Shown: positions 14,957 to 61,805 of the stretch, piece by piece
Layout of the letters: each line of letters opens with the position of its first letter
How positions within the stretch are numbered: position 1 is the first letter of the stretch
NCBI GenBank assembly: GCA_964634935.1
Contig: CAZWJT010000005.1
Location: 7,128 to 71,127, forward strand
Origin: an uncultured Planctomycetia bacterium
GTDB taxonomy: Bacteria > Omnitrophota > Gorgyraeia > Duberdicusellales > Duberdicusellaceae
Direction of reading: 5' to 3'
Length of the DNA: 64,000 bases
Notes under the pieces: generated by a model
Seen by the model: only the letters and a program-made list of their open reading frames with translations
Told to the model about the DNA's origin: nothing
Databases searched by the model: none
Made by a program: the position numbers and the translations under genes

Positions 14957-15967
14957 TTAATATAGGGTAATTTCCTTACGTAGATACCGGGCGGAAACTT
15001 CGGGCGGAGTCTCAACCACGTAAAAACCACTCCCCCACTCAAAACCGGCGATTCGAGTCAATTTCGGCATGATTTCAATATGCCAATGAAACCCTGGATA
15101 TGTTTCCGTGTTAACCGGAGACGTATGCACAATATAATTATAGGGAGGGTCCCTCAGCACTTCTCGGAGCCGCCCGATGCTTTGTTTTAAAATCAGGGAA
15201 AGCAAAGTAATTTTGGCATCCGTAATCATCACAAAATCATTTTCGTGTTCTTTGGGCATAATCCACACCTCAAAAGGGAAGCGGGAAAACAAAGGACAAA
15301 AAGCGATGAATGAATCATTCTCAAAAATAATTCGTTCACGGTTGTTCGAAAGTTCCTGGGTCACCATATCACAAAAGATGCAGCGCTCGTGGTAGCTCAA
15401 ATAGCGCTCTGCTCCCTTAATTTCTTCCTGCACATTTTTGGGAACCATGGGAAGCGCGATAAGTTGTGAATGACCATGCTCAAGCGAAGCTCCGGCGGCT
15501 TCTCCGACATTTTTAAAAAGAAGAATGTATTTAAAACGCTTATCGTTTCTCAGATCAAGACTCCGCGAACGATACTTGCTGAGCATTACTTCGACTTCTC
15601 TATCGTCTAGCTCAGAAATACCCTTAAAGTGATAGGGGCTATCGACAATAACTTCATGCGCTCCGATTCCATTTGACATATCATACATACCGACCGCCTG
15701 CTTATCAAGCGTACCTTCGATCCGTAAGGCAGGAAATTTATTTGGCACAACCCGGCTCATCCAGCCGCTCGTATTCGCCAAGGTATTTGCTGGTCGCACC
15801 GCTTCAATTTCAGGGGGAGTCATCGCTTCGTTACCAGGACAAAACGGACAACCTTTCTCTCCCTTCCAAACATGTTGATCAATATGAAAATCACGCGGCG
15901 AAAAAGGACGATCGGTATTCGTAATCACCCAACGCCCCGTAATAGGATCTTTGCGTATCTCCGACAT
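14957..15967 (-). CDS. GalT-like HIT-family nucleotidyltransferase (galactose-1-phosphate uridylyltransferase family), paralog 1 with an intact HxHxQ motif
   Basis: 336 aa. It has the zinc site CPFCPGNE. FKNVGEAAGASLEHGHSQLIALP aligns to the E. coli GalT FENKGAAMGCSNPHPHGQ segment (HxH nucleophile motif). Confidence 0.8.
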   Translation of the reverse strand: MSEIRKDPITGRWVITNTDRPFSPRDFHIDQHVWKGEKGCPFCPGNEAMTPPEIEAVRPANTLANTSGWMSRVVPNKFPALRIEGTLDKQAVGMYDMSNGIGAHEVIVDSPYHFKGISELDDREVEVMLSKYRSRSLDLRNDKRFKYILLFKNVGEAAGASLEHGHSQLIALPMVPKNVQEEIKGAERYLSYHERCIFCDMVTQELSNNRERIIFENDSFIAFCPLFSRFPFEVWIMPKEHENDFVMITDAKITLLSLILKQSIGRLREVLRDPPYNYIVHTSPVNTETYPGFHWHIEIMPKLTRIAGFEWGSGFYVVETPPEVSARYLRKEITLY

Positions 15968-15970
15968 AAC

Positions 15971-16999
15971 TCAGCTTACCACTTCTGGGTTCTTTAAAAA
16001 TTTTGCCGCTTCTTCCGGCGGAACAGGACAGATATAAAAACCACTCCCCCACTCAAAACCGGCAACTAATGTCAGACGAGGGATGATCTCCAAATGCCAA
16101 TGGTAATCCTCTTCGATGGTTGTCCAATATCCTTTCCGTTCTCGACGAAACGGAGCGCTGTGAATCACATAATTGTATGGCGGGTCTCCCAGTAGTTTTT
16201 TTAACCGCGAGAGGATTTCTTTCAACACCACCGCTAAGCTTCGAGACTCCTCGGGATTAATATGCTGAAAATCAGCGCTATGGCGTTTTGGCATCACCCA
16301 CACTTCAAAAGGAAATCTCGGAGCAAAAGGAGCCACGGCGACAATGCCGTCAACTTCGAGAATAACTCGCTTCTGTTCAGTTAATTCCTGCTTGACAAGA
16401 TCGCAGAAAACGCACCGTTCATGATACTCAAAGTATGATTTTGCGCCCGCCAGTTCCTCTTTCACCCGTTTCAATACTACGGGTGTTGCAATAATCTGAG
16501 AACGCGCATGGCGCACTCTGCCCCCTCCTGCTTTCCATCCATAATTCTTAAAAATAAGGACATACTTTATCCTTTTATCCTGTTCAAGGGTCTTTATCCG
16601 TTCCGCATAGGCAGTAAGCACCTTTTCTATCTGCGTAGTTTCCAGATCAGCCATATTTGCAATATGCTGAGGGGTTTCGATCACAACCTCGTGGCTGCCA
16701 GTCGCACCCATAAGATCATACAGGCCAACGCCCTTCTTCCATAGTTCATTGTCTAACTTAAGAAAAGGAGAGATGCTCGGAACAACGCGGATATCCCAGC
16801 CGGGAGCATTTGACTGAGGATGAGCGCGACGAATAGCAAATAACTCGGACGGCGTGTTCCCTTCCTTTTGTTCGCAGAAGGGACACTCTCCCTCTTGAGG
16901 GCCATCGTTGACTTTTTTAAAATCATTTGGTCTTTTGGCCCGTTCGGTCGAAATGATAACCCATCTCCCGAGAACCGGATCTTTCCTTAATTCAGGCAT
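15971..16999 (-). CDS. GalT-like HIT-family protein, paralog 2; the nucleophile His position is occupied by Arg
   Basis: The preferred start is the ATG at 16999..16997 (MPELRKDPVLGRWVI...); the 67-codon ORF-track extension was rejected. It has the zinc site CPFCEQKE. The active-site segment is FKNYGWKAGGGRVRHARSQIIATP, that is H-A-R-S-Q instead of H-x-H-x-Q. Confidence 0.75.
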   Translation of the reverse strand: MPELRKDPVLGRWVIISTERAKRPNDFKKVNDGPQEGECPFCEQKEGNTPSELFAIRRAHPQSNAPGWDIRVVPSISPFLKLDNELWKKGVGLYDLMGATGSHEVVIETPQHIANMADLETTQIEKVLTAYAERIKTLEQDKRIKYVLIFKNYGWKAGGGRVRHARSQIIATPVVLKRVKEELAGAKSYFEYHERCVFCDLVKQELTEQKRVILEVDGIVAVAPFAPRFPFEVWVMPKRHSADFQHINPEESRSLAVVLKEILSRLKKLLGDPPYNYVIHSAPFRRERKGYWTTIEEDYHWHLEIIPRLTLVAGFEWGSGFYICPVPPEEAAKFLKNPEVVS

Positions 17000-17090
17000 G
17001 AGTATTTTCTTTTTTAAATAATTATGCTGTATTATAACAACCTGGGAAAAACTTGCAAGATTTAAAATAGGCGTGGGGAAGGAAGATGGA

Positions 17091-17810
17091 TTACAAGAAT
17101 TTTTTTGCCTGTGCGATAGCTTCAGGGAGCGAAAGCACTCCTTCATAAAGAGCTTTACCGACGATTGCCCCCCAAGCTCCAAACTCCGCGATCTTCTCAA
17201 TATCAGCCAGAGACGAAACGCCGCCGGAAACGATAAAATGGCACGGGAAATCTTTGATGAACTTCTGGGTTTTTTCCAGCTCAGCCCCTTGCATCATCCC
17301 ATCACGCGAAATATCAGTATAGATAATCCACTGAATCCCCTTCTGCACAAGCATTTCAAAAGCAGATTGAACCGGAATATCCGCAGTCTGTTGCCATCCA
17401 AGCGTAGCAACATATCCATCTTTCACGTCAACACTCACCGCTATCTGTTCTGCTGAAAACTTTGCCAAAAGATGTTCAAGTAGGTTTCCGGCAAAAGCTT
17501 TCGTACCGATGATAATCCGAGAAACCCCTTCATCGAGCAACATGCGCGCCTTGGCAAAATCCCTGATTCCTCCACCGGTCTGCAGTGGTATACCGGTTGC
17601 TACGATTTTCTGGATAACTTCGAAATTATCCAAGCCCGTAGAAAATGCCGCATCTAAATCGACCACATGAAGAAAATCGGCTCCTTGATCCTTCCAGCGT
17701 TGAGCGTATTCGAGAGGATCTTTCGAATAGACAATTTTTTCCGCAAGTTTCCCTTGCCGAAGACGGACTACTTCTCCGTTTAAAAGATCGATGGCCGGAA
17801 TTATTTTCAT
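17091..17810 (-). CDS. hisA: ProFAR isomerase HisA
   Basis: MKIIPAIDLLNGEVVRL...; (beta/alpha)8 HisA/HisF family. It is immediately downstream of hisH with a 4-nt overlap. Confidence 0.9.
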   Translation of the reverse strand: MKIIPAIDLLNGEVVRLRQGKLAEKIVYSKDPLEYAQRWKDQGADFLHVVDLDAAFSTGLDNFEVIQKIVATGIPLQTGGGIRDFAKARMLLDEGVSRIIIGTKAFAGNLLEHLLAKFSAEQIAVSVDVKDGYVATLGWQQTADIPVQSAFEMLVQKGIQWIIYTDISRDGMMQGAELEKTQKFIKDFPCHFIVSGGVSSLADIEKIAEFGAWGAIVGKALYEGVLSLPEAIAQAKKFL

Positions 17811-42771: not shown

Positions 42772-42884
42772 TCAACAAAATGTTCTCCGAGGAAAAAATA
42801 CCAAAAAATCATAAATTAATCTTGATTTTTCTGAATAAAAAAGTATAGTAATTATTAATATAATTATATCGCAGTATCATACAA

Positions 42885-43556
42885 ATGGAAAGAACGCTCC
42901 GTCAGACACATAGAATTGAAGAAGCATTTTTTAAGAAAGAAAAGTCTGAGCGTACACTAAAAACCCCGTTAAAAAAGAAAAAGGTATTCTTCTCTATTCT
43001 CCTCAGTTCCCTGCTTGTTTCTGGGGTAATTATCACAGCGATCATCACCCTTGGAAAGTTTGACTTCTTGATCTTGGTTACGCCAAAACAAAAAATCGGA
43101 TCTTCTCTTTCAGAAAACATTCTCACGAAAAACATATCTGTCGCTACGCAAAACCGAAAGTCGTATGCCAATCTTTTTGACAAAGGAACCCTGAACATCG
43201 TTTCTTCAAAATCCAGACCTGCGGTAGTGACCCTTGATTTTCCTGAACCGCTGAATGCAAAAGGCAGAACACTTACCCTGCAAACACAACAACTTCCGGT
43301 CAACACGTCCTTTGCCATCTTCTTCCGCGACAGCTTCCATTACTCCAACGCGCTTGCGCCTGTTTTCGTGACCGTGAATAAAGAAAACCCGCTACCCGCT
43401 CCTCTTCTGTCAATTCCTTTACCGGAAGAATCTAACCCGCAGATCGATTGGACAAAGATAAACCAGATCAGGATTAAGGTAATCCCTCTTTCCCAGGTAG
43501 ATACCCTTGTTGTAATCAAACATATGTCCCTTGAAAAAAAGGAGGCCAAGTTATGA
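42885..43556 (+). CDS. Membrane-anchored hypothetical protein: basic N-terminal tail, single TM helix, and a C-terminal extracytoplasmic domain of unknown fold. Candidate partner of the downstream ParA-type ATPase.
   Basis: 223 aa. Residues 1-35 are Lys/Arg-rich (FFKKEKSERTLKTPLKKKK), followed by the TM helix FFSILLSSLLVSGVIITAIITL. The stop overlaps the next gene start in an ATGA motif (43553..43556). Confidence 0.6.
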   Translation: MERTLRQTHRIEEAFFKKEKSERTLKTPLKKKKVFFSILLSSLLVSGVIITAIITLGKFDFLILVTPKQKIGSSLSENILTKNISVATQNRKSYANLFDKGTLNIVSSKSRPAVVTLDFPEPLNAKGRTLTLQTQQLPVNTSFAIFFRDSFHYSNALAPVFVTVNKENPLPAPLLSIPLPEESNPQIDWTKINQIRIKVIPLSQVDTLVVIKHMSLEKKEAKL

Positions 43557-44581
43557 AAGTGGTGTCGGTCACCAATCAAAAAGGAGGGTGCGGAAAAACG
43601 ATTACTGCGGTGAATTTTGCCGCTGCGCTCGCCCGAAAAGGGATAAAAGTTCTCCTGATAGACCTTGATCCGCAAGCCCACGCCACATACGCTTTAGGCT
43701 ATAAAGATACAAGCGAAAAGAACATACTCCGGGTTTTTGACTGCATTATCCAAAATGGATCATGGGACCTAAAAGAATTCCTGTGGGAAAAAAGCGCAAA
43801 TTTATCTTTTCTTGCCTCAACCATGGAATTAAGCGCCTTGGAACAAGAACTTAAAGATAGCCAATACTCTCTTGAAATCCTTAACAAGCTCATCGATCAA
43901 GCTGAACCTATGGGATTTGAATACATCGTCGTTGACTGTCCGCCAAGTCTTGGCTTTCTCACCCTTAACGCCCTAAAATCCTGTGATACAGTGCTGGTGC
44001 CTCTTGACACAAGCTTATTTTCACTCGTAGGCCTTGACAGTTTATTGAGAGTCGCTTCGCTCACGCAGCACTACAGTGACCGTTTGCCCAACTTCTATTA
44101 CCTGGTCACTATTTTTGACAAACGCTCTAATTTTGCAAAACGATTCATGGAGACAGTGAACGAACAATTTTCGGATAAACTCTTAACAACCATTATCCGC
44201 AACAATGTTCATCTGCGCGAATCGGCTTTACTTGGCAAAACCATTTTTGAACATGATGCAGCTTCAAACGGCGCAAAAGATTATGCAAGCCTGGTTGACG
44301 AGATACTCGCAAAAGATAGAGCAAAACGAACAGTAGAGTTTCGCTGTGAAGCCCCTCAAGCGCAAAAAGTGTATATTACCGGAGACTTCAATAACTGGCG
44401 GAAAGAAGAAAAATTCTCGCTTGTTCCGTCCGATGGAATCTGGAGAAAAAAAGTTTCCCTGCCTCGCGGTGCATATAACTATAAGTTTATCATCGACGAC
44501 ACGTGGACGCACGACAAAGCAAATCCCCAACTACAAGACGACAGTTACGGAGGGTTGAACTCAATTATCACGATTCAGTAA
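43553..44581 (+). CDS. ParA/MinD-family P-loop ATPase fused to a C-terminal AMPK-beta-type glycogen-binding domain (CBM48)
   Basis: The deviant Walker A is VTNQKGGCGKTITAVN. Residues ~265-342 (VEFRCEAPQAQKVYITGDFNNWRKEE...YNYKFIIDDTWTHDKANP...GGLNSIITIQ) align closely with the AMPK beta-subunit glycogen-binding domain. A GGAGG RBS lies 8 nt upstream of the start. Confidence 0.85.
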   Translation: MKVVSVTNQKGGCGKTITAVNFAAALARKGIKVLLIDLDPQAHATYALGYKDTSEKNILRVFDCIIQNGSWDLKEFLWEKSANLSFLASTMELSALEQELKDSQYSLEILNKLIDQAEPMGFEYIVVDCPPSLGFLTLNALKSCDTVLVPLDTSLFSLVGLDSLLRVASLTQHYSDRLPNFYYLVTIFDKRSNFAKRFMETVNEQFSDKLLTTIIRNNVHLRESALLGKTIFEHDAASNGAKDYASLVDEILAKDRAKRTVEFRCEAPQAQKVYITGDFNNWRKEEKFSLVPSDGIWRKKVSLPRGAYNYKFIIDDTWTHDKANPQLQDDSYGGLNSIITIQ

Positions 44582-44591
44582 AGAGACGCCC

Positions 44592-46532
44592 TTAGATTCC
44601 GGAAAGGGCTTCTGAAGAAAGAAAAGAAATAATTTCTTGTTCTTTAGCGCAGGCTGCAGCGTATCCGCGTTCGATATACTCATCGATCTTAGAAAAATCC
44701 GTCCACTGTAAATCCGCAAGCAACGGATGGATAATCACGTCAGAAAATGAAGCTGCTTCTTCAACAAACACCCGTTGCATCGTTTCGATACTCCCAAAAA
44801 TAAAGTCAAAGATATTGAAAGCATGAGAAAGCCGTCCGTTTTTATACGCATCAAGGATTTCTTCCCGGGAAGGAGTTACATTAACACCAATAATTCGATT
44901 TACCCGTTCACGGGAAAGTATTTGCGTGGGCAGTGGGTTTAGGATGCCTCCATCAAGTAAAAGCTCCTGTTGCCGTTTTACTGGCATGAAAATTCCGGGA
45001 AACGCGCAACTTCCTAAAACCGCTTCCCAGACATACCCTTTCTCAAGAACATAGGAAGATCTCCGCTTAAAATTAAAGACAACAATACGGAGCGGCATGC
45101 GCAAATCAGAAAACTTTTTATTTCCGAAAAGCTTCCGCATGATTGCGTGAAGCGTAGACCCGCGAAAGAATGAAATCAGAGAAAAATTAATATCAAAAAA
45201 AGAAAAAAGCGAAATTTTCCGGAAAAGACCAACTTTCTCTTTGATCGTTTCCCAAGTATCCCCCATCGCCCATAAGGCGGCGATTACCGAACCCATACTC
45301 GATCCGGAAACGATATCAACCGGAATATCTAACTCTGAAAAACGCTTTATTACCCCAATGTGCGACAACCCATATGCCGATCCACTCCCGAAAGCAATCC
45401 CGGTACGCACATTTCCAATTGCCCGGGAAATATTTCGGACTGTTGATCCATAGATCAATCCCGGTCCCGTTTGTGTTTTTTCCTGAAGATCTTTCTTGCT
45501 CGTAAGACCTTCAATAAAGGCGAGTTTTGCGTAAATCGCCTGGCTATAAGGAATGATCTGGGAGGGAAATTTCTTACTGAGCAACAAAAGACGCACCTTG
45601 TCTTCAGTAAAGCTGTAGGCACGCATAAAGCGCTGAACAATACCGTGATAGCGGCGCAGAAACCCAAGCTCACCACGCAAAAGAAGGTGGATTGCATCTG
45701 AATGATAGATGAAATTCGCGATTGCCTTATCTTCGCTGGAACACAAATCAACAATCACATAGTTATAAACCGTACCTAAAAAGTTTAACAGCTCGAACGC
45801 GCGCTTCTCTTCGTCAATCCGGGAAACATGGTATCTGACCGCCAGATGATGAAACCCAAGGTCCTGAAAAATAAAATCGAGGATTGTCTCTTCCGAGAAT
45901 TGATAGAGTTCAAGAAATTTCTCAAACTGCAACCCTTCGCGCCGCAAAGAAAACATATCATCCAGGCGCACCTCAAGCAACATGACTTTTCTGCCGGTTT
46001 GGACTGCCAGGTGTTTCGCCAGCATCCAGGCATAAGTAGTTTTCCCGATAGTGATAAAAGGACTGTAAACGGCAATCAGCGAACTTTCGAAAATGTTCTT
46101 TCCTTTCCCTTGCCGCCTCTTGATCCTGCGCGAAAGAGTTTGAGAAAGCTCAAGCACAAGCGAAGGCTGCTGTTCAGCAAACTTCAGAAATTTTTCTTTG
46201 GGAATACGTAAAATCCAGCAATCGCTCGCTGCTTCCGCGGTAACTGAATGAAGATCGTCGGTAAGAAGCGAAATGATCCCGAAGCAAGTACCCCGAAAAA
46301 GATATTCTAAAATCTTCCCCTGTTTTGATGATTCCGCGGTATACGTCACAACTCGACCTTGAACAACAACATAGAAGAAATCTGCGGGAGAATCTTCCCG
46401 GTAGATAACCGCCTGCTTCTTGTATTCAATGAGTTCGGCTAAAAACGCAAGCTCTGCCAGAGACTCCCTTGATAAAGACGCAAAGAGAAAAATCCGCTGA
46501 ATAATTTGTTTTTTATCAATCCGCATGTTCAA
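44592..46532 (-). CDS. Multidomain protein: N-terminal cyclic-nucleotide-binding domain, a central degenerate MinD/ParA-like domain, and a C-terminal patatin-like phospholipase
   Basis: 646 aa. The cNMP-binding region is FFYVVVQGRVV...RGTCFGIISLL. The central segment IAVYSPFITIGKTTYAWMLAKHLAVQTGRKVMLLEV...VIVDL resembles a CpaE/MinD domain with a non-canonical P-loop. The patatin motifs are GIAFGSGSAYGLSHIG (Gly-rich), GSSMGS (GxSxG) and LLDGG (DGA/G). Confidence 0.8.
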   Translation of the reverse strand: MNMRIDKKQIIQRIFLFASLSRESLAELAFLAELIEYKKQAVIYREDSPADFFYVVVQGRVVTYTAESSKQGKILEYLFRGTCFGIISLLTDDLHSVTAEAASDCWILRIPKEKFLKFAEQQPSLVLELSQTLSRRIKRRQGKGKNIFESSLIAVYSPFITIGKTTYAWMLAKHLAVQTGRKVMLLEVRLDDMFSLRREGLQFEKFLELYQFSEETILDFIFQDLGFHHLAVRYHVSRIDEEKRAFELLNFLGTVYNYVIVDLCSSEDKAIANFIYHSDAIHLLLRGELGFLRRYHGIVQRFMRAYSFTEDKVRLLLLSKKFPSQIIPYSQAIYAKLAFIEGLTSKKDLQEKTQTGPGLIYGSTVRNISRAIGNVRTGIAFGSGSAYGLSHIGVIKRFSELDIPVDIVSGSSMGSVIAALWAMGDTWETIKEKVGLFRKISLFSFFDINFSLISFFRGSTLHAIMRKLFGNKKFSDLRMPLRIVVFNFKRRSSYVLEKGYVWEAVLGSCAFPGIFMPVKRQQELLLDGGILNPLPTQILSRERVNRIIGVNVTPSREEILDAYKNGRLSHAFNIFDFIFGSIETMQRVFVEEAASFSDVIIHPLLADLQWTDFSKIDEYIERGYAAACAKEQEIISFLSSEALSGI

Positions 46533-49228: not shown

Positions 49229-49669
49229 TTATCTTTTCACTCGATACAGTTTATCCTTACGCCTGACCCTTTGACGCACCAGAATCCCCACTTCATCCCC
49301 CTGAGAGACCCGGATAACCGGCTCATGGTTAACCTGCATGGAGGTAATCTTTTGCTCAAAATCACTCGTATACCCTTTAAAGTGAACTAAGTCTCCGTTC
49401 TGTAATGATGATCGGGAAATCTTTACCGCAGCAACATGAATTTTAGGAAAATAATGGGTTACGCGCCCTGTAAGCTCTTCGGAGGAAAGATTCTTTTTTA
49501 CCTGAAGTTTTTTCCTTTTGAAACGAACAGCGGAAACTTTGGGAAGGGATTTTTTCTTCGTGGCTATTTTGTGCGCAGAAACCTTGCGAAGTTTCTTGAG
49601 AGCTTTTCTTCTACGCGGCAAAGAAGCTTTCCCTCTTTTCTTCTTCTTAAAAAGAAACCCAAATATCAT
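49229..49669 (-). CDS. Hypothetical protein with an extremely Lys/Arg-rich N-terminal half and a C-terminal small beta-rich domain
   Basis: 146 aa. Residues 5-60 are about 50% K/R (KKKKRGKASLPRRRKALKKLRK...). The C-terminal GRVTHYFPKIHVAAVKI...GDEVGILV looks like a beta-barrel of the translation-protein type. There were no database hits by memory. Confidence 0.45.
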   Translation of the reverse strand: MIFGFLFKKKKRGKASLPRRRKALKKLRKVSAHKIATKKKSLPKVSAVRFKRKKLQVKKNLSSEELTGRVTHYFPKIHVAAVKISRSSLQNGDLVHFKGYTSDFEQKITSMQVNHEPVIRVSQGDEVGILVRQRVRRKDKLYRVKR

Positions 49670-49672
49670 AGG

Positions 49673-49996
49673 TTACACAACGAGCTTTTCAGCGATTTCA
49701 GAAATACCGGGAAATTTTGCATATTTTCCCATAAGCGCTGAAAAAATACCAAGGAAAGAAAGAAAAAAAAGAATGAGAAGCAAGAATTTTGCGAAGGTCC
49801 CAAGAATAAAAACCCGGGAAAGTAGAAGGCATAAAAATTCGAGAATACATAAAACTAAACCTTGGCGCGCATGGAAATGAGCGAATTTATTCTCCCTGGC
49901 GTAGAGCACAACGACAAAACACATAAAAAACACATAGGAAAGCGCCGCCCACCAGGCGCCTTGCCTGATTTCTGAAAGAGTTTCTTTTTCACTCAT
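49673..49996 (-). CDS. DUF4870-family small membrane protein
   Basis: The preferred start is the ATG at 49996 (MSEKETLSEIRQGAWWAAL...). The FHARQGL motif is followed by TM helices. Confidence 0.55.
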   Translation of the reverse strand: MSEKETLSEIRQGAWWAALSYVFFMCFVVVLYARENKFAHFHARQGLVLCILEFLCLLLSRVFILGTFAKFLLLILFFLSFLGIFSALMGKYAKFPGISEIAEKLVV

Positions 49997-50080
49997 AATA
50001 CTATGGTTTATATCATAAAAAAAAAGGTCTGTAAAGATGAAGCTTGGGAAGAATTCCGGAAACACAAGAACGTGAAAGAA

Positions 50081-53000
50081 CTACCAGGATTTAAAATCCG
50101 CTGGATCAAGAATCCGCCAAGTGCTGCGCGAGGCTCCGGAAATATCTCCGGGGGGAAGACGTAGATCATTCGGATCAGCAAAACTTGTATTATAGGAAAA
50201 ATTCCAGATACCCACTGAAGTATTATAATAATACCCGTATCCGCGTTCATATCCATACCGATAGTCACCTGGAACAGTAGCCTTCTCGCTGGGAGCAAGT
50301 TGAACAAATGCCCCTCCGATGCGCCTTGTCTTTGTCCCCTCGTTTGCATCAGAAGTATCGCCATCCCTATTTAAATCAGTCGCATACCAACGCTCAAGCA
50401 CATACCCCTGTGGGTCATACGGAGAAACGATCGCGGTATTATACGTAGAGGGAATGCTAGCGTATCCAGGTAACGCTGCATTGGTAAAGCTTGAAGAATA
50501 TCCTGAAGTTCCCGGAATATTCCAGAAATCAGCAGGATCAGAAAAAACCGCGTTTTTCTTCGTAGCATAAGGATTGGAGCCTCCGTTCAAATCCTGATGC
50601 CAATAGGTTGTAAGTACTCGTAAATCATCTAAGAAAGTGGCGCGCTCATTTGCCGTGGGAGGATTTGTGCCAGAAGGGTCCCAATCATACTCTTTTCTTC
50701 CGACAATAACCCCATTTCTTTTCACATAAAGATACCAATGTTTATCGCCAGGCCAAGCGCCACCATGTTGTTGATAGACACAGTCACCGGCAGCTCCGCT
50801 TGTAGCGCCATTTAAAACGAAATTTTGTAACGAACCCGCATCTCCAACATCCAGCAAATCAGCAGTATCACTGTCGTTCAATAAGTGGGCAGGATAATTC
50901 ACCGGCGCAGCCGGCTTATAAGGAAATGTGAGGGAACTGGCGAACGCGGCTTGAAACCCGTTAAACCCCGAAGAAAGCGTGTATACTTTGCGCTTTTCCG
51001 TAATTACCGAAGCCGGAGGAACTTTTGAAGCGCTATCGTTATAATCCGCAGAACCGGGAACTTTCTCATCCCAGGTTGTGGCTCCTGATTTTTTGTATTT
51101 CACAACATTATAATCTCCTGCAAGATAAATATTATGAGGAGTAACAAAAGTCAATCCTTCCCGGGGAAGTTTCTGCCCATTTTTCAAAACAACAGCAAAA
51201 TCACGCTCTAGATGTTCCGGCTTCAGGCTCTCAATATACACAACTCCATTAAAATTCGGTATCGCCCCACTATTGATCTTGGTAACCAAAGCTGCGACGT
51301 CGATTTCCAGGGTCTTTGTTTTACACACCCCTTTACTTGCGTCGCAATCCGCGCCAGCGCCAGTAACCGGATAAACCGGGTTCCAAAATGACGCTTCCGT
51401 AGTTACATCGCTTATTGGGTTAATGTCTCCTCCTGGATCAAACTTGACATATATGCCATTTGTCTGGGCTTCTGATTTCAACGTTGTATTTAAAGGCGGA
51501 GGGTCGATTTTCTCAGGACATCCTGAATTGTGCTCAAAAATATTCACCGGGGAAAGATCATCATCAACTCCGTCCGCTAAATCTTTCCAATCCCGCCATT
51601 CGGTCGCCTGCTCGTAAGTATTGAGAAATTTTACTAAATCGTATTCTTGGCCTGCCGTATCGCTTGTACCTGAAAAGTTATCCTGATCTCCGGTAACCCG
51701 GTCATGCCCGTATTTTAAATCATCCCACCATTCTTTATTGATGAAAGTTGGCCGAGCCGCGACCCAGTCAGCGTCAGTCCAGACTCTCGTATTGGGATTC
51801 GTCTGATACCCAGCCGTTAAATCACTTTGATAAATGCTTGCCCAATATCTTCTGTGTTTTAGTTTCCAATAATCAGCCCAATCAGTTCCCGGAAGCTCTT
51901 CGCTGTTTCCACCATAGATATCCCCTACGGTTCTTGCTCCCTTGTCGGAAATATCAACGTTCATCCGGACAAATTCTGTCTCCGGAACCACAAACCTGAT
52001 TGTGTTTTCTGGAGTTGGCAGGACGGCTCTATCGGTGCCGGAATACTTATCCCATGTCCAAGTTCTCTCAAGATAATACGGCAAACCAAGACCAGCCTGC
52101 AGAGCAGGATAGGCCGAGGCTGTTTGTTGCCATTTCGGTAAATTGGAAGGGGTAGCGGTATATGTTCCAGTTGTATTATAGTTAAAGTGAAAGAAAACAT
52201 TGTGAGTGATATAAGAATATGAAGGAGAAAAAGTAATTTGGTCATCCGTCAGATATAAGGGAGCTTTTCCATCTCTGCTATTGTTAGCCCAGCCATAATT
52301 TGAATTATCGTCTGCTGAATAAGGAGCAGTCATCTGATAATTCCACAATTTGATATATCCATTGGTACTCAGTTCTTTTAAATCCTTAAAGAGAGTATTG
52401 AGCCTTAAGGTGATGCCTTTCTGGAGATTTACATCAGCCTGTTCAACATTGACATGAATACTACCAAAACCGCCGCCGTCGTAAATAGTACTTGATTCAT
52501 CTGAAAAAGTCCTTGGTCCCGGATAAAACTGGAAAAATTCATAGAGCGAGCGTTTGATAACCCTCTGTTCAGCTGCCTTCTGAATATTGCCTATTTGGGC
52601 AAATACCCGGATAACCATCGCCTTAGAATCCTCCCAATTGGTAGGAGCGGTAAAAGGGTATAGTTCTTGGAAAGTTATGACCTTTAGCGTCGAGTTTGCC
52701 GGAAGATTCTGCAAGGTATAGTAGTAATCAGTGCCCGGGCCTTCGTTCACATAGGTATAATCGCCGGTAAGATGAATCTGCGGACGCCCAACATTCGCAC
52801 CAGCTGTATACGGACTCTGAATCGCAGGATGTCCGCTGTCATTCGGAAGAATCTGGGGATTATTAGGATTGGATATATCGATATAGTGCGTACACCACTG
52901 CCACTTCGTTGTGCTGGCCAACTCCCGGTATGCCGCCCATAAACCCCTGTTTATTAACGCATCGATTGCGGTTTCCTCAGTATCCCGCTGCGTGGTTCTT

Positions 53001-53179
53001 AAGCCTGAGGTGATGACGCTGTAGAGGGTGACCCCTCCAATCAGAAGAACCAGGACAACAAAAAAGACGACGACGATGACAACGCTTTTCTTTGATTTTT
53101 CTCTACCGCGGGGTTTTGCATGATCCTGCCTATCCATAGCAACCATATAAGTATATCTTTTTTTCATGGAAGAATTCAA
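50081..53179 (-). CDS. Large (1032 aa) secreted/surface protein with an N-terminal membrane anchor, encoded directly downstream of two pseudopilin genes (candidate pilus-associated adhesin)
   Basis: A basic N-terminus is followed by a hydrophobic helix (SVVIVVVFFVVLVLLIGGVTL). The remainder is rich in W, Y, N, G, T and D (beta-rich). No recognisable catalytic motif was found. The start is 1 nt after the stop of the upstream pilin gene. Confidence 0.6.
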   Translation of the reverse strand: MNSSMKKRYTYMVAMDRQDHAKPRGREKSKKSVVIVVVFFVVLVLLIGGVTLYSVITSGLRTTQRDTEETAIDALINRGLWAAYRELASTTKWQWCTHYIDISNPNNPQILPNDSGHPAIQSPYTAGANVGRPQIHLTGDYTYVNEGPGTDYYYTLQNLPANSTLKVITFQELYPFTAPTNWEDSKAMVIRVFAQIGNIQKAAEQRVIKRSLYEFFQFYPGPRTFSDESSTIYDGGGFGSIHVNVEQADVNLQKGITLRLNTLFKDLKELSTNGYIKLWNYQMTAPYSADDNSNYGWANNSRDGKAPLYLTDDQITFSPSYSYITHNVFFHFNYNTTGTYTATPSNLPKWQQTASAYPALQAGLGLPYYLERTWTWDKYSGTDRAVLPTPENTIRFVVPETEFVRMNVDISDKGARTVGDIYGGNSEELPGTDWADYWKLKHRRYWASIYQSDLTAGYQTNPNTRVWTDADWVAARPTFINKEWWDDLKYGHDRVTGDQDNFSGTSDTAGQEYDLVKFLNTYEQATEWRDWKDLADGVDDDLSPVNIFEHNSGCPEKIDPPPLNTTLKSEAQTNGIYVKFDPGGDINPISDVTTEASFWNPVYPVTGAGADCDASKGVCKTKTLEIDVAALVTKINSGAIPNFNGVVYIESLKPEHLERDFAVVLKNGQKLPREGLTFVTPHNIYLAGDYNVVKYKKSGATTWDEKVPGSADYNDSASKVPPASVITEKRKVYTLSSGFNGFQAAFASSLTFPYKPAAPVNYPAHLLNDSDTADLLDVGDAGSLQNFVLNGATSGAAGDCVYQQHGGAWPGDKHWYLYVKRNGVIVGRKEYDWDPSGTNPPTANERATFLDDLRVLTTYWHQDLNGGSNPYATKKNAVFSDPADFWNIPGTSGYSSSFTNAALPGYASIPSTYNTAIVSPYDPQGYVLERWYATDLNRDGDTSDANEGTKTRRIGGAFVQLAPSEKATVPGDYRYGYERGYGYYYNTSVGIWNFSYNTSFADPNDLRLPPGDISGASRSTWRILDPADFKSW

Positions 53180-58462: not shown

Positions 58463-59446
58463 TCAAAGGCAACATACCCGGTTCCTACCCTCTTTTTTGG
58501 CCTTATACAAAGCTTTATCCGCAAGTTCAATTAACGCCGCAGAATCTCCGGTATTTCCCGGAAAACCGGCAACCCCAATACTCAGAGTAAGATGAATATG
58601 CTCATCATACGCGGTAATCTCCTCTTTTGCAACTTTTTCCCGCAGACGCTCAGCAACTCGGCAAGAGATTTCTGTGGTTGCTTCAGGCAGAATAACCGCA
58701 AATTCTTCCCCGCCAAAACGCCCGATAAAATCAATCTCTCTGATATTATCTTTCAGAATCCGGGCAATCTTCTTCAAAACCACATCTCCAACCATATGGC
58801 CATACGTATCGTTGCAATACTTAAAGTGGTCAATATCGACCATCATAAACGAAAGCGAGAGTCCAAGACGGGTCGCCCGGCTAAACTCTTCTCCAAATCG
58901 CTCCATCAGATGCCTGCGGTTTGCTATCTTGGTAAGAGTATCCGTGATCGATAATCTCTGCATCTTCTCATAAAGCTTGGCGCGCTCAAGAAAAAGATTC
59001 AACTGAGATAACAAATAAGGGACTTGGCTGACAATGCGGCGGTCATCCGACGATATTCCGAGAAAAAAACCAAGATCGTTCGCTGCTTTGTAGTGGTAAA
59101 CGAAATATTTCTTTTCATCGAGCGGATGGGGTGAAACAACAACTTCTTGAATATTCTCAATACGAAGTAATGCATCCTGAAAAGCCCGAAGCAGTTCTTC
59201 AAAATTCAACGCTTCGGATATTTCCCGATTCACCTCATAGAGCTTTAAAACATTATGCGCACGCTCTTCTTCTCGGGTATATTTCTTGGAAATATCCTCA
59301 CAGCGGTTCCGGATATTTTCAAGGTAGACCCGCGCTGCTTCATATTCACGGAATATGCGCTTTGAGTACCGCTGGAGAAAGAAAAAAAACACCCCAACAA
59401 TCAACACGAGAAAGCCGATGTACCCAGTAAAAGTAAAAATGCTCAT
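58463..59446 (-). CDS. Membrane-anchored GGDEF diguanylate cyclase
   Basis: An N-terminal TM helix is followed by a sensor-like region and a GGDEF domain with RFGGEEFAVIL (intact GG[DE]EF). Confidence 0.85.
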   Translation of the reverse strand: MSIFTFTGYIGFLVLIVGVFFFFLQRYSKRIFREYEAARVYLENIRNRCEDISKKYTREEERAHNVLKLYEVNREISEALNFEELLRAFQDALLRIENIQEVVVSPHPLDEKKYFVYHYKAANDLGFFLGISSDDRRIVSQVPYLLSQLNLFLERAKLYEKMQRLSITDTLTKIANRRHLMERFGEEFSRATRLGLSLSFMMVDIDHFKYCNDTYGHMVGDVVLKKIARILKDNIREIDFIGRFGGEEFAVILPEATTEISCRVAERLREKVAKEEITAYDEHIHLTLSIGVAGFPGNTGDSAALIELADKALYKAKKEGRNRVCCL

Positions 59447-59465
59447 ACCCTTTTCAAGGTTCTCT

Positions 59466-60680
59466 TCATCCCATACAACATACTCGATTCTTGCCTTGCT
59501 TCTTTGCTTTATACATCCGGCTGTCAGCGATACGGACTAATTCTTCAAAAAACTTGCTTTCTGCGGGAAAACTGGATATGCCAATAGATACTGTGGCCAA
59601 AATCTTTGTACGTCTTAATTCTATAGAAGCCTTCTGTATTTCCGAACGAACTCTTTCAGCAACCTTGTACGCCTGTTCAAGATTCTCAGCAAGAAGCAAA
59701 ACAATGAATTCTTCCCCGCCAAAACGCGAGATAATGTTCCCGGAATTCCCGATAACCTGTGTTAAGATATCTGCGATTTTCTTCAAAATCATATCCCCGG
59801 CGATATGCCCATACTGGTCATTGAGCTTCTTAAAATCATCGATATCAACCATAAACAAAAAGAAGGATGTAGAGTTGATCAAGCTGCGCTTGATTTCTTG
59901 TTTCAAGCGATCCATAAAAAAACCTTTTAGGTATAAACCGGTTATTCCATCATGGATAGCCATTTCTTGGGTACGGCGAAAAATAAATGACTTATCGAGC
60001 GCAACCGCCCCAATATCAGCGATGATTGAAAGCGCACGTAAATCTTCGATACGAAAAGCATTCTTTTCTCTGGACTCCGCCCGTAACGTACCGAGTATTC
60101 TCTTCCCCAGCGCGAGTGGAGCTTCAATCAACGAATTCACCACCCTGCTCTTTAAGCCCTCAATCTTCTCAAGGTCAAACCGGAAATCCTTGGCTAAATC
60201 CTCAATAAAAAGACCGCGGTTATGCTTCAAAACCCAGTAGTCAAAAATATCGCCTTCTTTCTCTTGAATAATGTAATTTCGATCTTCTTTTGCCACGGAA
60301 GTAAGCTTGAGCACTTTCGATTCATCTTCAACGAGAAAAAGTAAAGTACGGTCATTTTGATGAAAAACTTCTTTTACCTTGTGAGTGAGATACTCGCAGA
60401 TCTGCTGGGGCATTTCAAAACTCGCGATGTCTTCGATCACCACGCGGAATGTATTTAATTTTTGCATACGGAGCGGCATACTCTTCAAATACTCCTCTTT
60501 CTCTTTAATCTGCTCCTGATAAATATTGCTCTCCTCTTGCATCTGTTCGGCAGCAAGCAAATGCCGTTTTATCGCGCTTTGTTTCTTGGTATAGAAAAAG
60601 AAAAGGACAAAACCTGTTATGCCATACAGGCAAGAGAAAAAAAGAGGAAATGAAAGGTTGTAGGGAAGCGTAATTACCAT
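59466..60680 (-). CDS. Membrane-anchored GGDEF diguanylate cyclase (second, tandem)
   Basis: An N-terminal TM helix and a coiled-coil/GAF-like region are followed by GGDEF with SRFGGEEFIVLL. Confidence 0.85.
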   Translation of the reverse strand: MVITLPYNLSFPLFFSCLYGITGFVLFFFYTKKQSAIKRHLLAAEQMQEESNIYQEQIKEKEEYLKSMPLRMQKLNTFRVVIEDIASFEMPQQICEYLTHKVKEVFHQNDRTLLFLVEDESKVLKLTSVAKEDRNYIIQEKEGDIFDYWVLKHNRGLFIEDLAKDFRFDLEKIEGLKSRVVNSLIEAPLALGKRILGTLRAESREKNAFRIEDLRALSIIADIGAVALDKSFIFRRTQEMAIHDGITGLYLKGFFMDRLKQEIKRSLINSTSFFLFMVDIDDFKKLNDQYGHIAGDMILKKIADILTQVIGNSGNIISRFGGEEFIVLLLAENLEQAYKVAERVRSEIQKASIELRRTKILATVSIGISSFPAESKFFEELVRIADSRMYKAKKQGKNRVCCMG

Positions 60681-60701: not shown

Positions 60702-61805
60702 CTATATAATAGTCTCTTCTGTGTCTTTATCAAAAAAATGGATCTTGCGCATATCGAATACGACTTCGATAATATCACCCATGGCTGGACGATCATGCGC
60801 ATCAACAATAGCAACAAAGGTGTGCTTTTGAGTAACAAGATGGACGTGATTTTCCGACCCCATTGGCTCTATAACATCACAGCGAACCCGAACGGTATTC
60901 TCTGGAGTTGCGGCAGAAGCGAATAAACGGTCGTAAATATTTTCTGGCCGGATGCCAAAAATTACCTCTTTCCCGATATAGCTCTTTAAGGCTCCATTCA
61001 TCGATTCAGTAATCTTGACATCAAATTCTCCTTCAACAAAATAAAGTCTTCCTTCTTTCTTGATAATCTTCCCAGACATAAAGTTCATCGGCGGAGAACC
61101 AATAAAACCAGCGACAAACTTATTGGCTGGTTTATCATACACAGCAAGCGGTTCATCAAACTGCTGAATTTTTCCATCCTTCATGACTGCGATACGCGTG
61201 CCTAAAGTCATAGCCTCAATCTGGTCATGAGTTACATAAATCATCGTTGATTGAAGACGGATATGGAGCTTATGGAGCTCGGTCCTCATTAATGTCCGCA
61301 TCTTCGCGTCTAAGTTGCTCAATGGTTCATCGAAAAGAAAAACCAATGGTTTACGGACAATTGCTCTTCCTACCGCGACCCGCTGCCTTTCTCCACCGGA
61401 AAGCTCACGGGGCTTGCGATTAATCAGATGTTTAATGTTTAAAATTTCAGCCGCCGCCTTCACTCGGGTATCTATTTCCGATTTCGGATATTTGCGCAAT
61501 TTCAAGGCAAACGCCATATTCTCATAGACACTCATATGGGGGTATAACGCATAATTTTGGAACACCATGGCAATGTCACGATCTTTGGCGGGAATGTTAT
61601 TGACAAGCTTGTCAGAAATATAAATCGATCCGGAAGTTACATCTTCAAGGCCGGCAATCATCCGAAGAGTTGTCGATTTTCCGCAGCCGGAAGGACCGAC
61701 AAAAACGACAAATTCTTTATTTTCAATCCCTAAGCTAACATCTTTAACCGCAGCAATTTCCTTGCTAAACGCCTTGCTGACATTCACTAAACTTACCTGA
61801 GCCAT
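60702..61805 (-). CDS. ABC transporter ATP-binding protein, sugar-import type (MalK/UgpC family, with C-terminal TOBE-like domain)
   Basis: GPSGCGKST, LSGGERQRVAVGRA and FLFDEPLSNLDA are present. The C-terminal ~130 aa form a regulatory/TOBE-like domain. Confidence 0.85.
   Translation of the reverse strand: MAQVSLVNVSKAFSKEIAAVKDVSLGIENKEFVVFVGPSGCGKSTTLRMIAGLEDVTSGSIYISDKLVNNIPAKDRDIAMVFQNYALYPHMSVYENMAFALKLRKYPKSEIDTRVKAAAEILNIKHLINRKPRELSGGERQRVAVGRAIVRKPLVFLFDEPLSNLDAKMRTLMRTELHKLHIRLQSTMIYVTHDQIEAMTLGTRIAVMKDGKIQQFDEPLAVYDKPANKFVAGFIGSPPMNFMSGKIIKKEGRLYFVEGEFDVKITESMNGALKSYIGKEVIFGIRPENIYDRLFASAATPENTVRVRCDVIEPMGSENHVHLVTQKHTFVAIVDAHDRPAMGDIIEVVFDMRKIHFFDKDTEETII

Follow-up and report, generated by a model that had tools for sequence, protein, structure and literature searches.

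A ParA/Soj-type ATPase fused to a CBM48 domain and its predicted membrane partner: a candidate system for placing glycogen in Omnitrophota-type bacteria

The 64,000-nucleotide stretch analysed here (the window; contig CAZWJT010000005.1) carries at 42885-44581, on the plus strand, two co-directional open reading frames (ORFs) of 223 and 342 residues, referred to as gene 1 and gene 2. Gene 2 joins a ParA/Soj-type ATPase domain to a C-terminal carbohydrate-binding module (CBM) of the CBM48/AMPK-beta type, and gene 1 encodes a predicted bitopic membrane protein with a CBM-like domain of its own. We read the pair as a two-component accessory ParA system with an alpha-glucan (most probably glycogen in the cytoplasm) as ligand or cargo and with the membrane partner in control; the probability of this reading is put at roughly 0.45. 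The fusion family is widespread and unstudied, and some bacteria may use it to anchor their stores of glycogen or to distribute them.

In bacteria, the positions of chromosomes, plasmids, carboxysomes, chemoreceptor arrays and division sites are set mainly by ATPases of the ParA/MinD family. If the fusions indeed take glycogen granules as direct cargo, this would give the ParA/MinD family its first cargo that is neither protein nor DNA. The original prediction, made from the sequence of the window, had taken such a cargo class to be undescribed, and no account of a ParA-CBM48 fusion was found in the literature searched. A 2024 review of ParA/MinD ATPases lists no polysaccharide cargo, and the words glycogen, granule and carbohydrate do not occur in it. 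A recent report (PMC12706056) describes glycogen phase separation in E. coli as driving macromolecular rearrangement and asymmetric division, which raises the question of how bacteria control where glycogen is placed and how it is inherited. The fusion family provides a testable candidate for glycogen positioning, with an ATP switch and a glycogen-binding module on one polypeptide and with two dedicated types of partner, and since the cargo adaptor would be fused to the motor, it could offer a minimal setting in which to dissect or re-engineer positioning by ParA.

The fusion protein encoded by gene 2

43553..44323, plus strand: gene 2, ParA/Soj-type ATPase domain, residues 1-257 (Pfam, PDB phmmer, AlphaFold2, Foldseek)
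44324..44581, plus strand: gene 2, C-terminal CBM48/AMPK-beta-type glycogen-binding domain, residues 258-342, with the stop codon (Pfam, PDB phmmer)

Gene 2 had been predicted to be a ParA/MinD-type ATPase from its KGGCGKT motif, and the profile searches bear this out: residues 1-173 match Pfam AAA_31 at an E-value of 6e-45 (153.7 bits against a cutoff of 27), and CbiA is matched above its gathering score at 9e-20. The motif is a deviant Walker A at residues 10-16 (43580-43600). When the Protein Data Bank was searched with phmmer, the ATPase part detected ParA of 8RAY (8e-39), Soj of T. thermophilus (2e-34) and also Soj of H. pylori, and it aligns from end to end with chromosomal Soj/ParA structures. 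The AlphaFold2 (AF2) model, with a predicted local distance difference test score (pLDDT) of 93.9 and a predicted template-modelling score (pTM) of 0.91, consists of a Soj fold over residues 1-257 followed by an all-beta domain at 258-341. Foldseek ranked Soj first, with template-modelling scores (TM-scores) of 0.91-0.92, and placed McdA, BcsQ and MinD further off. With its deviant Walker A and signature lysine, its A' and B aspartates and its Soj/MinD fold, gene 2 falls within the ParA/MinD superfamily.

The C-terminal extension had been recognised as an AMPK-beta-type glycogen-binding domain, and the Pfam check suggested at that time gives two matches above threshold, namely AMPK1_CBM over residues 269-342 (E-value 2e-16; 60.4 bits against a gathering score of 26.8) and CBM_48 (1e-6; 29.0 bits against 22.4). 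For the last 85 residues, phmmer against the Protein Data Bank ranked the CBM of AMPK beta1/beta2 best (7e-11), followed by SEX4 and LSF1. The AMPK beta CBM and other CBM48 domains, which also occur in glycogen branching and debranching enzymes, are thus the closest match for residues 258-342; in gene 2, unlike in all of these proteins, the domain is joined to a P-loop positioning ATPase and not to a kinase scaffold, a phosphatase or a glycoside hydrolase.

Residue conservation was assessed on 75 full-length fusions drawn from all phyla recovered. On the ATPase side K10, G11, G12, C13, K15, T16, D37, D39 and D128 are invariant in all 75, and R191 is arginine in 72; it aligns with the arginine of the "D-x-R-T" segment of Soj, which by our count is the DNA-binding R189 of B. 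subtilis Soj. On the CBM side W282 and W318 are invariant, K311 is lysine or arginine in 68 fusions (glutamine or cysteine in the other seven) and N336 is asparagine or aspartate in 73. W282, K311, W318 and N336 align with W100, K126, W133 and N150 of AMPK beta1, respectively, which are its cyclodextrin contacts; the position of L146 of AMPK beta1 is occupied by phenylalanine or tyrosine in the fusions. As the invariant residues lie in both the ATPase and the CBM, both halves look functional and under selection, and judging from these residues the ATPase is apparently active and of the Soj type. The linker between the halves is mostly long and variable across the family (25-91 residues over the region, median 44, in the same 75 fusions); in the short-linker clade to which the window belongs, the pTM of the model suggests that the CBM is packed against the ATPase.

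The original prediction had proposed a search for other ParA-CBM48 fusions, and this search recovered a large conserved family in which both the ATPase residues and the sugar-contact residues are kept. The best 120 database matches all retain ParA together with AMPK1_CBM (PF16561), and every named one among them is Candidatus Omnitrophota. The nearest relatives, at 49-57% identity, are likewise of Omnitrophota type. A scan of one genome per species gave at least 596 stretches related to the fusion. Among the best 80 of these, most span the whole fusion protein, and their labels, as given in the records of metagenome-assembled genomes (MAGs), include Omnitrophota, Planctomycetota/Phycisphaerae, Myxococcota/"Deltaproteobacteria", Gemmatimonadales, Krumholzibacteriota, Eisenbacteria, Rokubacteriota, Margulisiibacteriota, Acidobacteriota, Auribacter and Gammaproteobacteria. 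The occurrence of the same fusion in hundreds of genomes takes the architecture far beyond chance.

The pair lacks defining features of the ParABS, Min, McdAB, BcsQ and bacterial tyrosine (BY) kinase systems. The curated NCBIfam models compared all score gene 2 below their cutoffs: ParA_partition NF041546 at 110 bits against 180, RepA TIGR03453 at 90 against 348, the MinD models at 47-51 against 202-508, BcsQ TIGR03371 at 75 against 158 and BY-kinase TIGR01007 at 38.7 against 108. The absence of ParB and of parS-like context, noted in the original prediction, held up on both counts. With B. subtilis Spo0J as the query (Pfam confirms the sequence as a ParB), tblastn gave no match, either in the window or in any of the 87 loci, which were searched with some 6 kb of flanking sequence, and ParB Pfam families are absent from all gene tables retrieved. 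The parS consensus TGTTNCACGTGAAACA has one match with three mismatches in the window, against 1.8 expected by chance. A canonical ParABS system was rejected on these grounds. MinD was likewise rejected, as the C-terminus of gene 2 is an all-beta CBM with no amphipathic membrane-targeting helix, and neither minC nor minE was seen among the gene calls retrieved for about 45 kb of the window. No bcs genes are linked to the fusion in any locus, and no bacterial microcompartment or RuBisCO genes were found near it.

The membrane partner and its counterparts

42885..43556, plus strand: gene 1, bitopic membrane partner, 223 residues (ORF; homologs upstream of ParA-CBM48)
42903..42932, plus strand: gene 1, N-terminal amphipathic helix, residues 7-16 (THRIEEAFFK), candidate ParA-contact peptide (AF2 helix 7-15)
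42933..42977, plus strand: gene 1, disordered polybasic linker, residues 17-31, with KKKK at its end (pLDDT below 50)
42978..43055, plus strand: gene 1, transmembrane helix, residues 32-57 (AF2 helix)
43137..43538, plus strand: gene 1, predicted CBM-type jelly-roll beta-sandwich ectodomain, residues 85-218 (AF2 beta-sandwich 85-218)

A lysine-rich N-terminal peptide, a single transmembrane helix and a C-terminal domain had been described for gene 1, and the AF2 model reproduces this layout, with the basic stretch at 17-31, the transmembrane segment at 32-57 and a beta-sandwich at 85-218 modelled at a pLDDT of 80-94. The model points to a jelly-roll of the CBM type, a feature that had escaped the original prediction; gene 1 has no match in Pfam or NCBIfam. 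By the positive-inside rule the tail would be cytoplasmic, and the CBM-like domain is probably periplasmic.

Gene 1 is missing from the public gene call of the contig, which has a 138-residue antisense ORF (42902-43318, minus strand) in its place. As this ORF replaced gene 1 in the protein database, the search for homologs of gene 1 came back empty, without even gene 1 itself. Conservation and the predicted fold nevertheless establish the plus-strand ORF as a real gene, which the present analysis thus recovers. Positional counterparts of 211-223 residues align with it over the full length. Six family members came up when the indexed database was searched with a profile, and those checked adjoin the closest ParA-CBM48 genes. 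An exhaustive HMMER search raised the number of cluster representatives to at least 133, of which 70 have an E-value of 1e-10 or better; nearly all of the representatives are 200-256 residues long and matched from end to end. Membership of the divergent clade of the window in this family is supported by hhalign, which joins the two at a probability of 90% (E-value 1.5e-6), and by an iterated hidden Markov model search, which converges.

The neighbourhoods were surveyed by clustering all ORFs in the 87 loci, with flanks of 4-10 kb and some contigs shorter. In 31 loci of this set a gene 1 family member lies directly upstream of the fusion on the same strand, an arrangement of Omnitrophota-like loci which we call type A. 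Two distant members of the gene 1 family, sampled blind, were both found immediately upstream of a ParA-AMPK1_CBM gene, so that the partner adjoins the fusion in 33/33 loci examined. The conservation of the partner with the ATPase, on which the original prediction had been made to depend, therefore stands; it is, however, confined to the Omnitrophota-type branch. The ATGA shared by the stop codon of gene 1 and the start codon of gene 2, which had been taken to imply obligate co-expression, is not a conserved feature: the gap between the genes has a median of 21 bp and reaches 335 bp among the 31 loci, and the four-nucleotide overlap recurs in only four of them and in locus L093.

Within the clade of the window R10, A14 and F15 of the N-terminal helix of gene 1 are invariant, and the wider family carries a related motif, [DE][IV]Y[DE]HLAx[IV]YL; the lysine-rich stretch is found throughout the family. 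We regard this helix as a candidate for contact with ParA. Support for partner peptides of this kind comes from the loci of other phyla (type B): in at least 25 of them, the gene directly downstream of the fusion encodes a further CbiA/ParA-like protein, whose Walker A is often degenerate. In at least 11 loci this second protein starts with "(K/R)LGRGLx(D/E)VSHxFLS", and its LGRGL peptide strongly resembles the N-terminal peptide by which ParB contacts ParA. A ParB-like peptide on the type B neighbour argues that the fusion family also relies on N-terminal partner peptides. The two partner types have an N-terminal amphipathic core in common (phi-x-x-phi-[F/Y]-[L/F]), a sequence resemblance which is suggestive only.

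Many type A loci show a longer gene order, in which an outer-membrane barrel of the Alginate_exp type (AlgE-like), a GH57 enzyme, the partner, ParA-CBM48, a DUF4870 protein and a polybasic small protein follow one another. The barrel is present in 13 loci, GH57 in 12 (226 bits), DUF4870 in 14 and the polybasic protein in 19. NCBIfam assigned no specificity to the GH57 proteins, and for this reason they are not called branching enzymes here. In type B loci a MerR regulator often lies upstream (seven loci), and an unannotated protein of about 220 residues is often found downstream. A ParA-like protein bearing a ParB-type activator peptide is unusual. The type B loci include L020, L027, L037-L039, L044-L048, L050, L055, L056, L059-L063, L065, L073 and L078.

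In two Omnitrophota loci (L003 and L004) no gene 1 homolog is detectable. Both have a GH130 gene 3' of the fusion (L003:7209-8201; L004:7140-8087). A divergent gene at L003:4890-5870 (minus strand) encodes a basic stretch, a transmembrane segment and a CBM27 domain in a layout like that of gene 1. This protein was considered as a gene 1 homolog and rejected, as hhalign against a three-sequence gene 1 profile detected no homology; it is an analogue only.

Possible mode of action and competing explanations

Glycogen binding, DNA binding, the topology of gene 1, its contact with the ATPase and the cellular outcome are what we infer from the features above. In the scheme that we favour, gene 2 would bind ATP and form a sandwich dimer on nucleoid DNA; through the two CBM48 domains that a dimer displays it would grip glycogen particles directly and multivalently, so that no separate cargo adaptor would be needed. 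From the inner membrane, the N-terminal helix and the polybasic tail of gene 1 would reach the ATPase, and the peptide might either stimulate ATP hydrolysis, so that both ParA and the granule are freed, or bring ParA to the membrane, with the CBM-like ectodomain sitting in the periplasm. The net effect could be an ATP-regulated tethering and distribution of granules between nucleoid and envelope, instead of passive piling at the poles. The original prediction had proposed a Brownian ratchet; such a ratchet, however, requires its activator on the cargo, and because the candidate activator here is on the membrane, a switchable tether-and-release arrangement fits better than a classical cargo-borne ratchet.

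Comparison with characterised systems helps to place this scheme. The chromosomal Soj/ParA proteins (1WCV/2BEK of T. thermophilus, B. subtilis Soj, 6IUB of H. pylori and 8RAY) resemble gene 2 in fold and size of the ATPase, with TM-scores of 0.86-0.92 and 29-36% identity, and share its deviant Walker A with the signature lysine, its A' and B aspartates and the arginine equated above with a DNA-binding one. Unlike them, gene 2 has neither ParB nor parS, carries a C-terminal CBM48 and an invariant cysteine in KGGCGKT, and belongs to a family whose members have as partner either a bitopic membrane protein or a further ParA-like protein, the latter in other phyla. McdA-McdB, PomZ-PomXY, PpfA-TlpT and ParC-ParP are accessory ParA systems for cytoplasmic cargo other than DNA, in which a small partner with a basic or disordered N-terminus is encoded alongside. 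McdA is a structural neighbour of gene 2 in Foldseek, although only 18-19% identical. In all four systems the partner is located on its cargo, where it stimulates the ATPase, whereas here the cargo module is fused to the ATPase and the partner is predicted to be membrane-anchored. By analogy, the system would work most like these orphan ParA cargo systems, with a motor-fused adaptor and a membrane partner.

Control from the membrane has a parallel in CapA/CapB, where the cytoplasmic peptide of a bitopic membrane protein controls an adjacently encoded P-loop partner. Gene 1, as the candidate controller of the cytoplasmic P-loop protein encoded next to it, would resemble CapA; gene 2, unlike CapB and other BY-kinases, has no tyrosine-cluster tail, and the candidate activating peptide is N-terminal and not C-terminal. 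The proposed outcome, a storage granule coupled to the nucleoid, is that of PhaM, which tethers PHB (polyhydroxybutyrate) granules to the nucleoid and distributes them at division. PhaM, a protein of unrelated sequence, is no ATPase, whereas the tether considered here would be ATP-switchable.

The case for an alpha-glucan ligand is helped by the gene for GH57, an alpha-glucan-family enzyme, which joins the cluster in the 12 related loci mentioned above, and by the published inference (PMC8542988) that Omnitrophota MAGs encode glycogen synthesis. Several observations weigh against the two-component glycogen reading. No glg genes and no GH57 gene occur in the approximately 45 kb of the window for which gene calls exist. 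The glycoside hydrolases found nearby vary between GH57, GH130 and GH1, which means that alpha-glucan is not the linked carbohydrate in every case. A candidate activator bound to the membrane and not to the cargo would set the system apart from every characterised ParA ratchet. A purely cytoplasmic granule role leaves both the predicted periplasmic CBM-like domain and the AlgE-like barrel unexplained. Finally, CBM48-like domains can serve protein contacts, as they do in AMPK. A broader statement is correspondingly more tentative, namely that a ParA family of many phyla takes the glycogen granule as direct cargo through the fused CBM48 and has been wired to the envelope by the bitopic partner in Omnitrophota. 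In the latter group, the periplasmic CBM-like domain of the partner could couple the status of external or periplasmic glycan to where cytoplasmic glycogen is held or released.

The CBM-like domain of gene 1 and the outer-membrane barrel in relatives keep a role in envelope polysaccharide open. In its most specific form, gene 2 would be a BcsQ-like organiser of a trans-envelope machine for polysaccharide import or export, including the bitopic protein and the barrel, with CBM48 holding the cytoplasmic end of the glucan. BcsQ, which acts in cellulose secretion, is likewise a ParA/MinD-family ATPase that accompanies polysaccharide-handling envelope proteins. However, the cluster conserves no membrane-embedded synthase, transporter or PilZ/c-di-GMP module, the type B loci of other phyla have no envelope genes, and tblastn of the entire window gave no match for GH57 or for the outer-membrane barrel. 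The ATPase is also much nearer to Soj than to BcsQ (TM-score 0.91 against about 0.8; 32-36% against 17-19% identity), in line with the low NCBIfam score. Although it survives better than the other alternatives, this explanation is unlikely.

Somewhat less likely again is a sensor of glycogen status, in which CBM48 would report the glycogen load and tune a Soj-like nucleoid function such as replication initiation, segregation or choice of the division site. The AMPK beta CBM has been described as a glycogen sensor, and the fact that the CBM sequence of gene 2 is closest to it and the ATPase closest to Soj would suit this role, as would the packing of the CBM against the ATPase that the pTM suggests for the short-linker clade. 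The long and variable linkers of the family, however, speak more for a flexible tether than for allosteric coupling, the linked genes include neither ParB nor DnaA nor any division gene, and a dedicated membrane partner would not be expected.

The CBM48-like domain might instead be a module for protein interaction or for another ligand, the ATPase then positioning some protein complex that has nothing to do with storage glucan. Protein contacts are a second use to which E-set and CBM48 folds are put, for example in the ADaM site of AMPK, and the variety of neighbouring hydrolases and the glutamine or cysteine at position 311 in seven of the 75 fusions would agree with such a role. Against this, both platform tryptophans are invariant, and the lysine/arginine and asparagine/aspartate positions are kept in more than 90% of the fusions across many phyla, a pattern that selection for glycan binding predicts; we consider this explanation improbable, and rank it below the sensor. 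That gene 2 is simply a ParA for chromosome or plasmid partition, its additional domain being incidental, is very improbable, since the automatic database names ('chromosome partitioning protein ParA'), the best similarity to Soj and the conserved equivalent of R189 are outweighed by the missing ParB and parS, the sub-threshold ParA_partition score, the conservation of dedicated non-ParB partners instead, and the occurrence of the fusion in phyla such as Myxococcota, where a canonical ParAB exists.

Locus layout and neighbouring genes

42822..42849, plus strand: candidate sigma-70-like promoter, TTGATT-16-TATAGT (consensus scan, 9/12 matches; weak)
43540..43545, plus strand: AGGAGG, Shine-Dalgarno sequence of gene 2, within the 3' end of gene 1
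49229..49669, minus strand: polybasic-tail protein with an EF-Tu-domain-2-like C-terminal barrel, 146 residues, possibly associated (family downstream of the fusion in 19 loci)
49673..50065, minus strand: DUF4870-like small membrane protein, possibly associated (family next to the fusion on its downstream side in about 10 of 14 loci)

The two plus-strand ORFs and their overlap were confirmed at 42885..43556 and 43553..44581, and the Shine-Dalgarno sequence, as read from the window, lies 7 nt ahead of the ATG of gene 2. The divergent upstream neighbour, which had been named as an AmmeMemoRadiSam radical SAM gene, is indeed one by NCBIfam TIGR04337 (310 bits against a cutoff of 220); it is separated from gene 1 by an AT-rich spacer of 113 bp that holds the promoter candidate. 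The pair had also been described as the only plus-strand genes of the window, which is correct for ORFs of at least 100 residues that are not nested in minus-strand genes. The strand bias is extreme across 1-64000, where all retrieved gene calls and all ORFs of at least 250 residues other than the studied pair are on the minus strand. The GC skew is below zero across the whole window, which fits a single replichore. The portions with gene calls contain housekeeping genes.

The DUF4870 and polybasic genes lie about 5 kb downstream of the fusion in the window, on the opposite strand; in locus L001, too, DUF4870 is about 5 kb away on the other strand. In relatives, the polybasic family lies downstream of the fusion on the same strand in 17/19 loci. 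The polybasic protein of the window gives a weak match to Pfam GTP_EFTU_D2 (E-value 0.017). This pair of DUF4870 and a histone-like polybasic-tail protein may be a further component of the system, possibly an adaptor to the nucleoid or to the ATPase. A 1032-residue ORF without a Pfam family adjoins them at 50081-53179 (minus strand).

The convergent neighbour of gene 2 at 44592-46532 (minus strand) encodes a cNMP-binding and patatin phospholipase protein, which is conserved beside the fusion in the clade of the window (L001, L008, L094), usually with a GH1 beta-glucosidase after it. Its residues 162-279 show a weak ParA-like match to AAA_31 (E-value 0.0097), and it has weak effector-type matches in PADLOC. 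A defence system, which this neighbour had brought to mind, was considered and rejected: gene 1 has no PADLOC match and gene 2 only an 18.8-bit P-loop match, so that neither belongs to a PADLOC family, and no cyclase was noted among the retrieved gene calls.

Further observations concern more distant genes. Tandem GalT-like paralogs (GalP_UDP_transf/DUF4921) at 14957-15967 and 15971-17200, both on the minus strand, stand beside gap-pgk-tpi and could be sugar-nucleotide or glucan-related enzymes. PilZ-domain genes occur in several related loci (L003, L009, L092). In the window, two adjacent GGDEF-domain proteins are encoded at 58463-60680 (minus strand), next to a gene for a MalK-like ABC ATPase (60702-61805).

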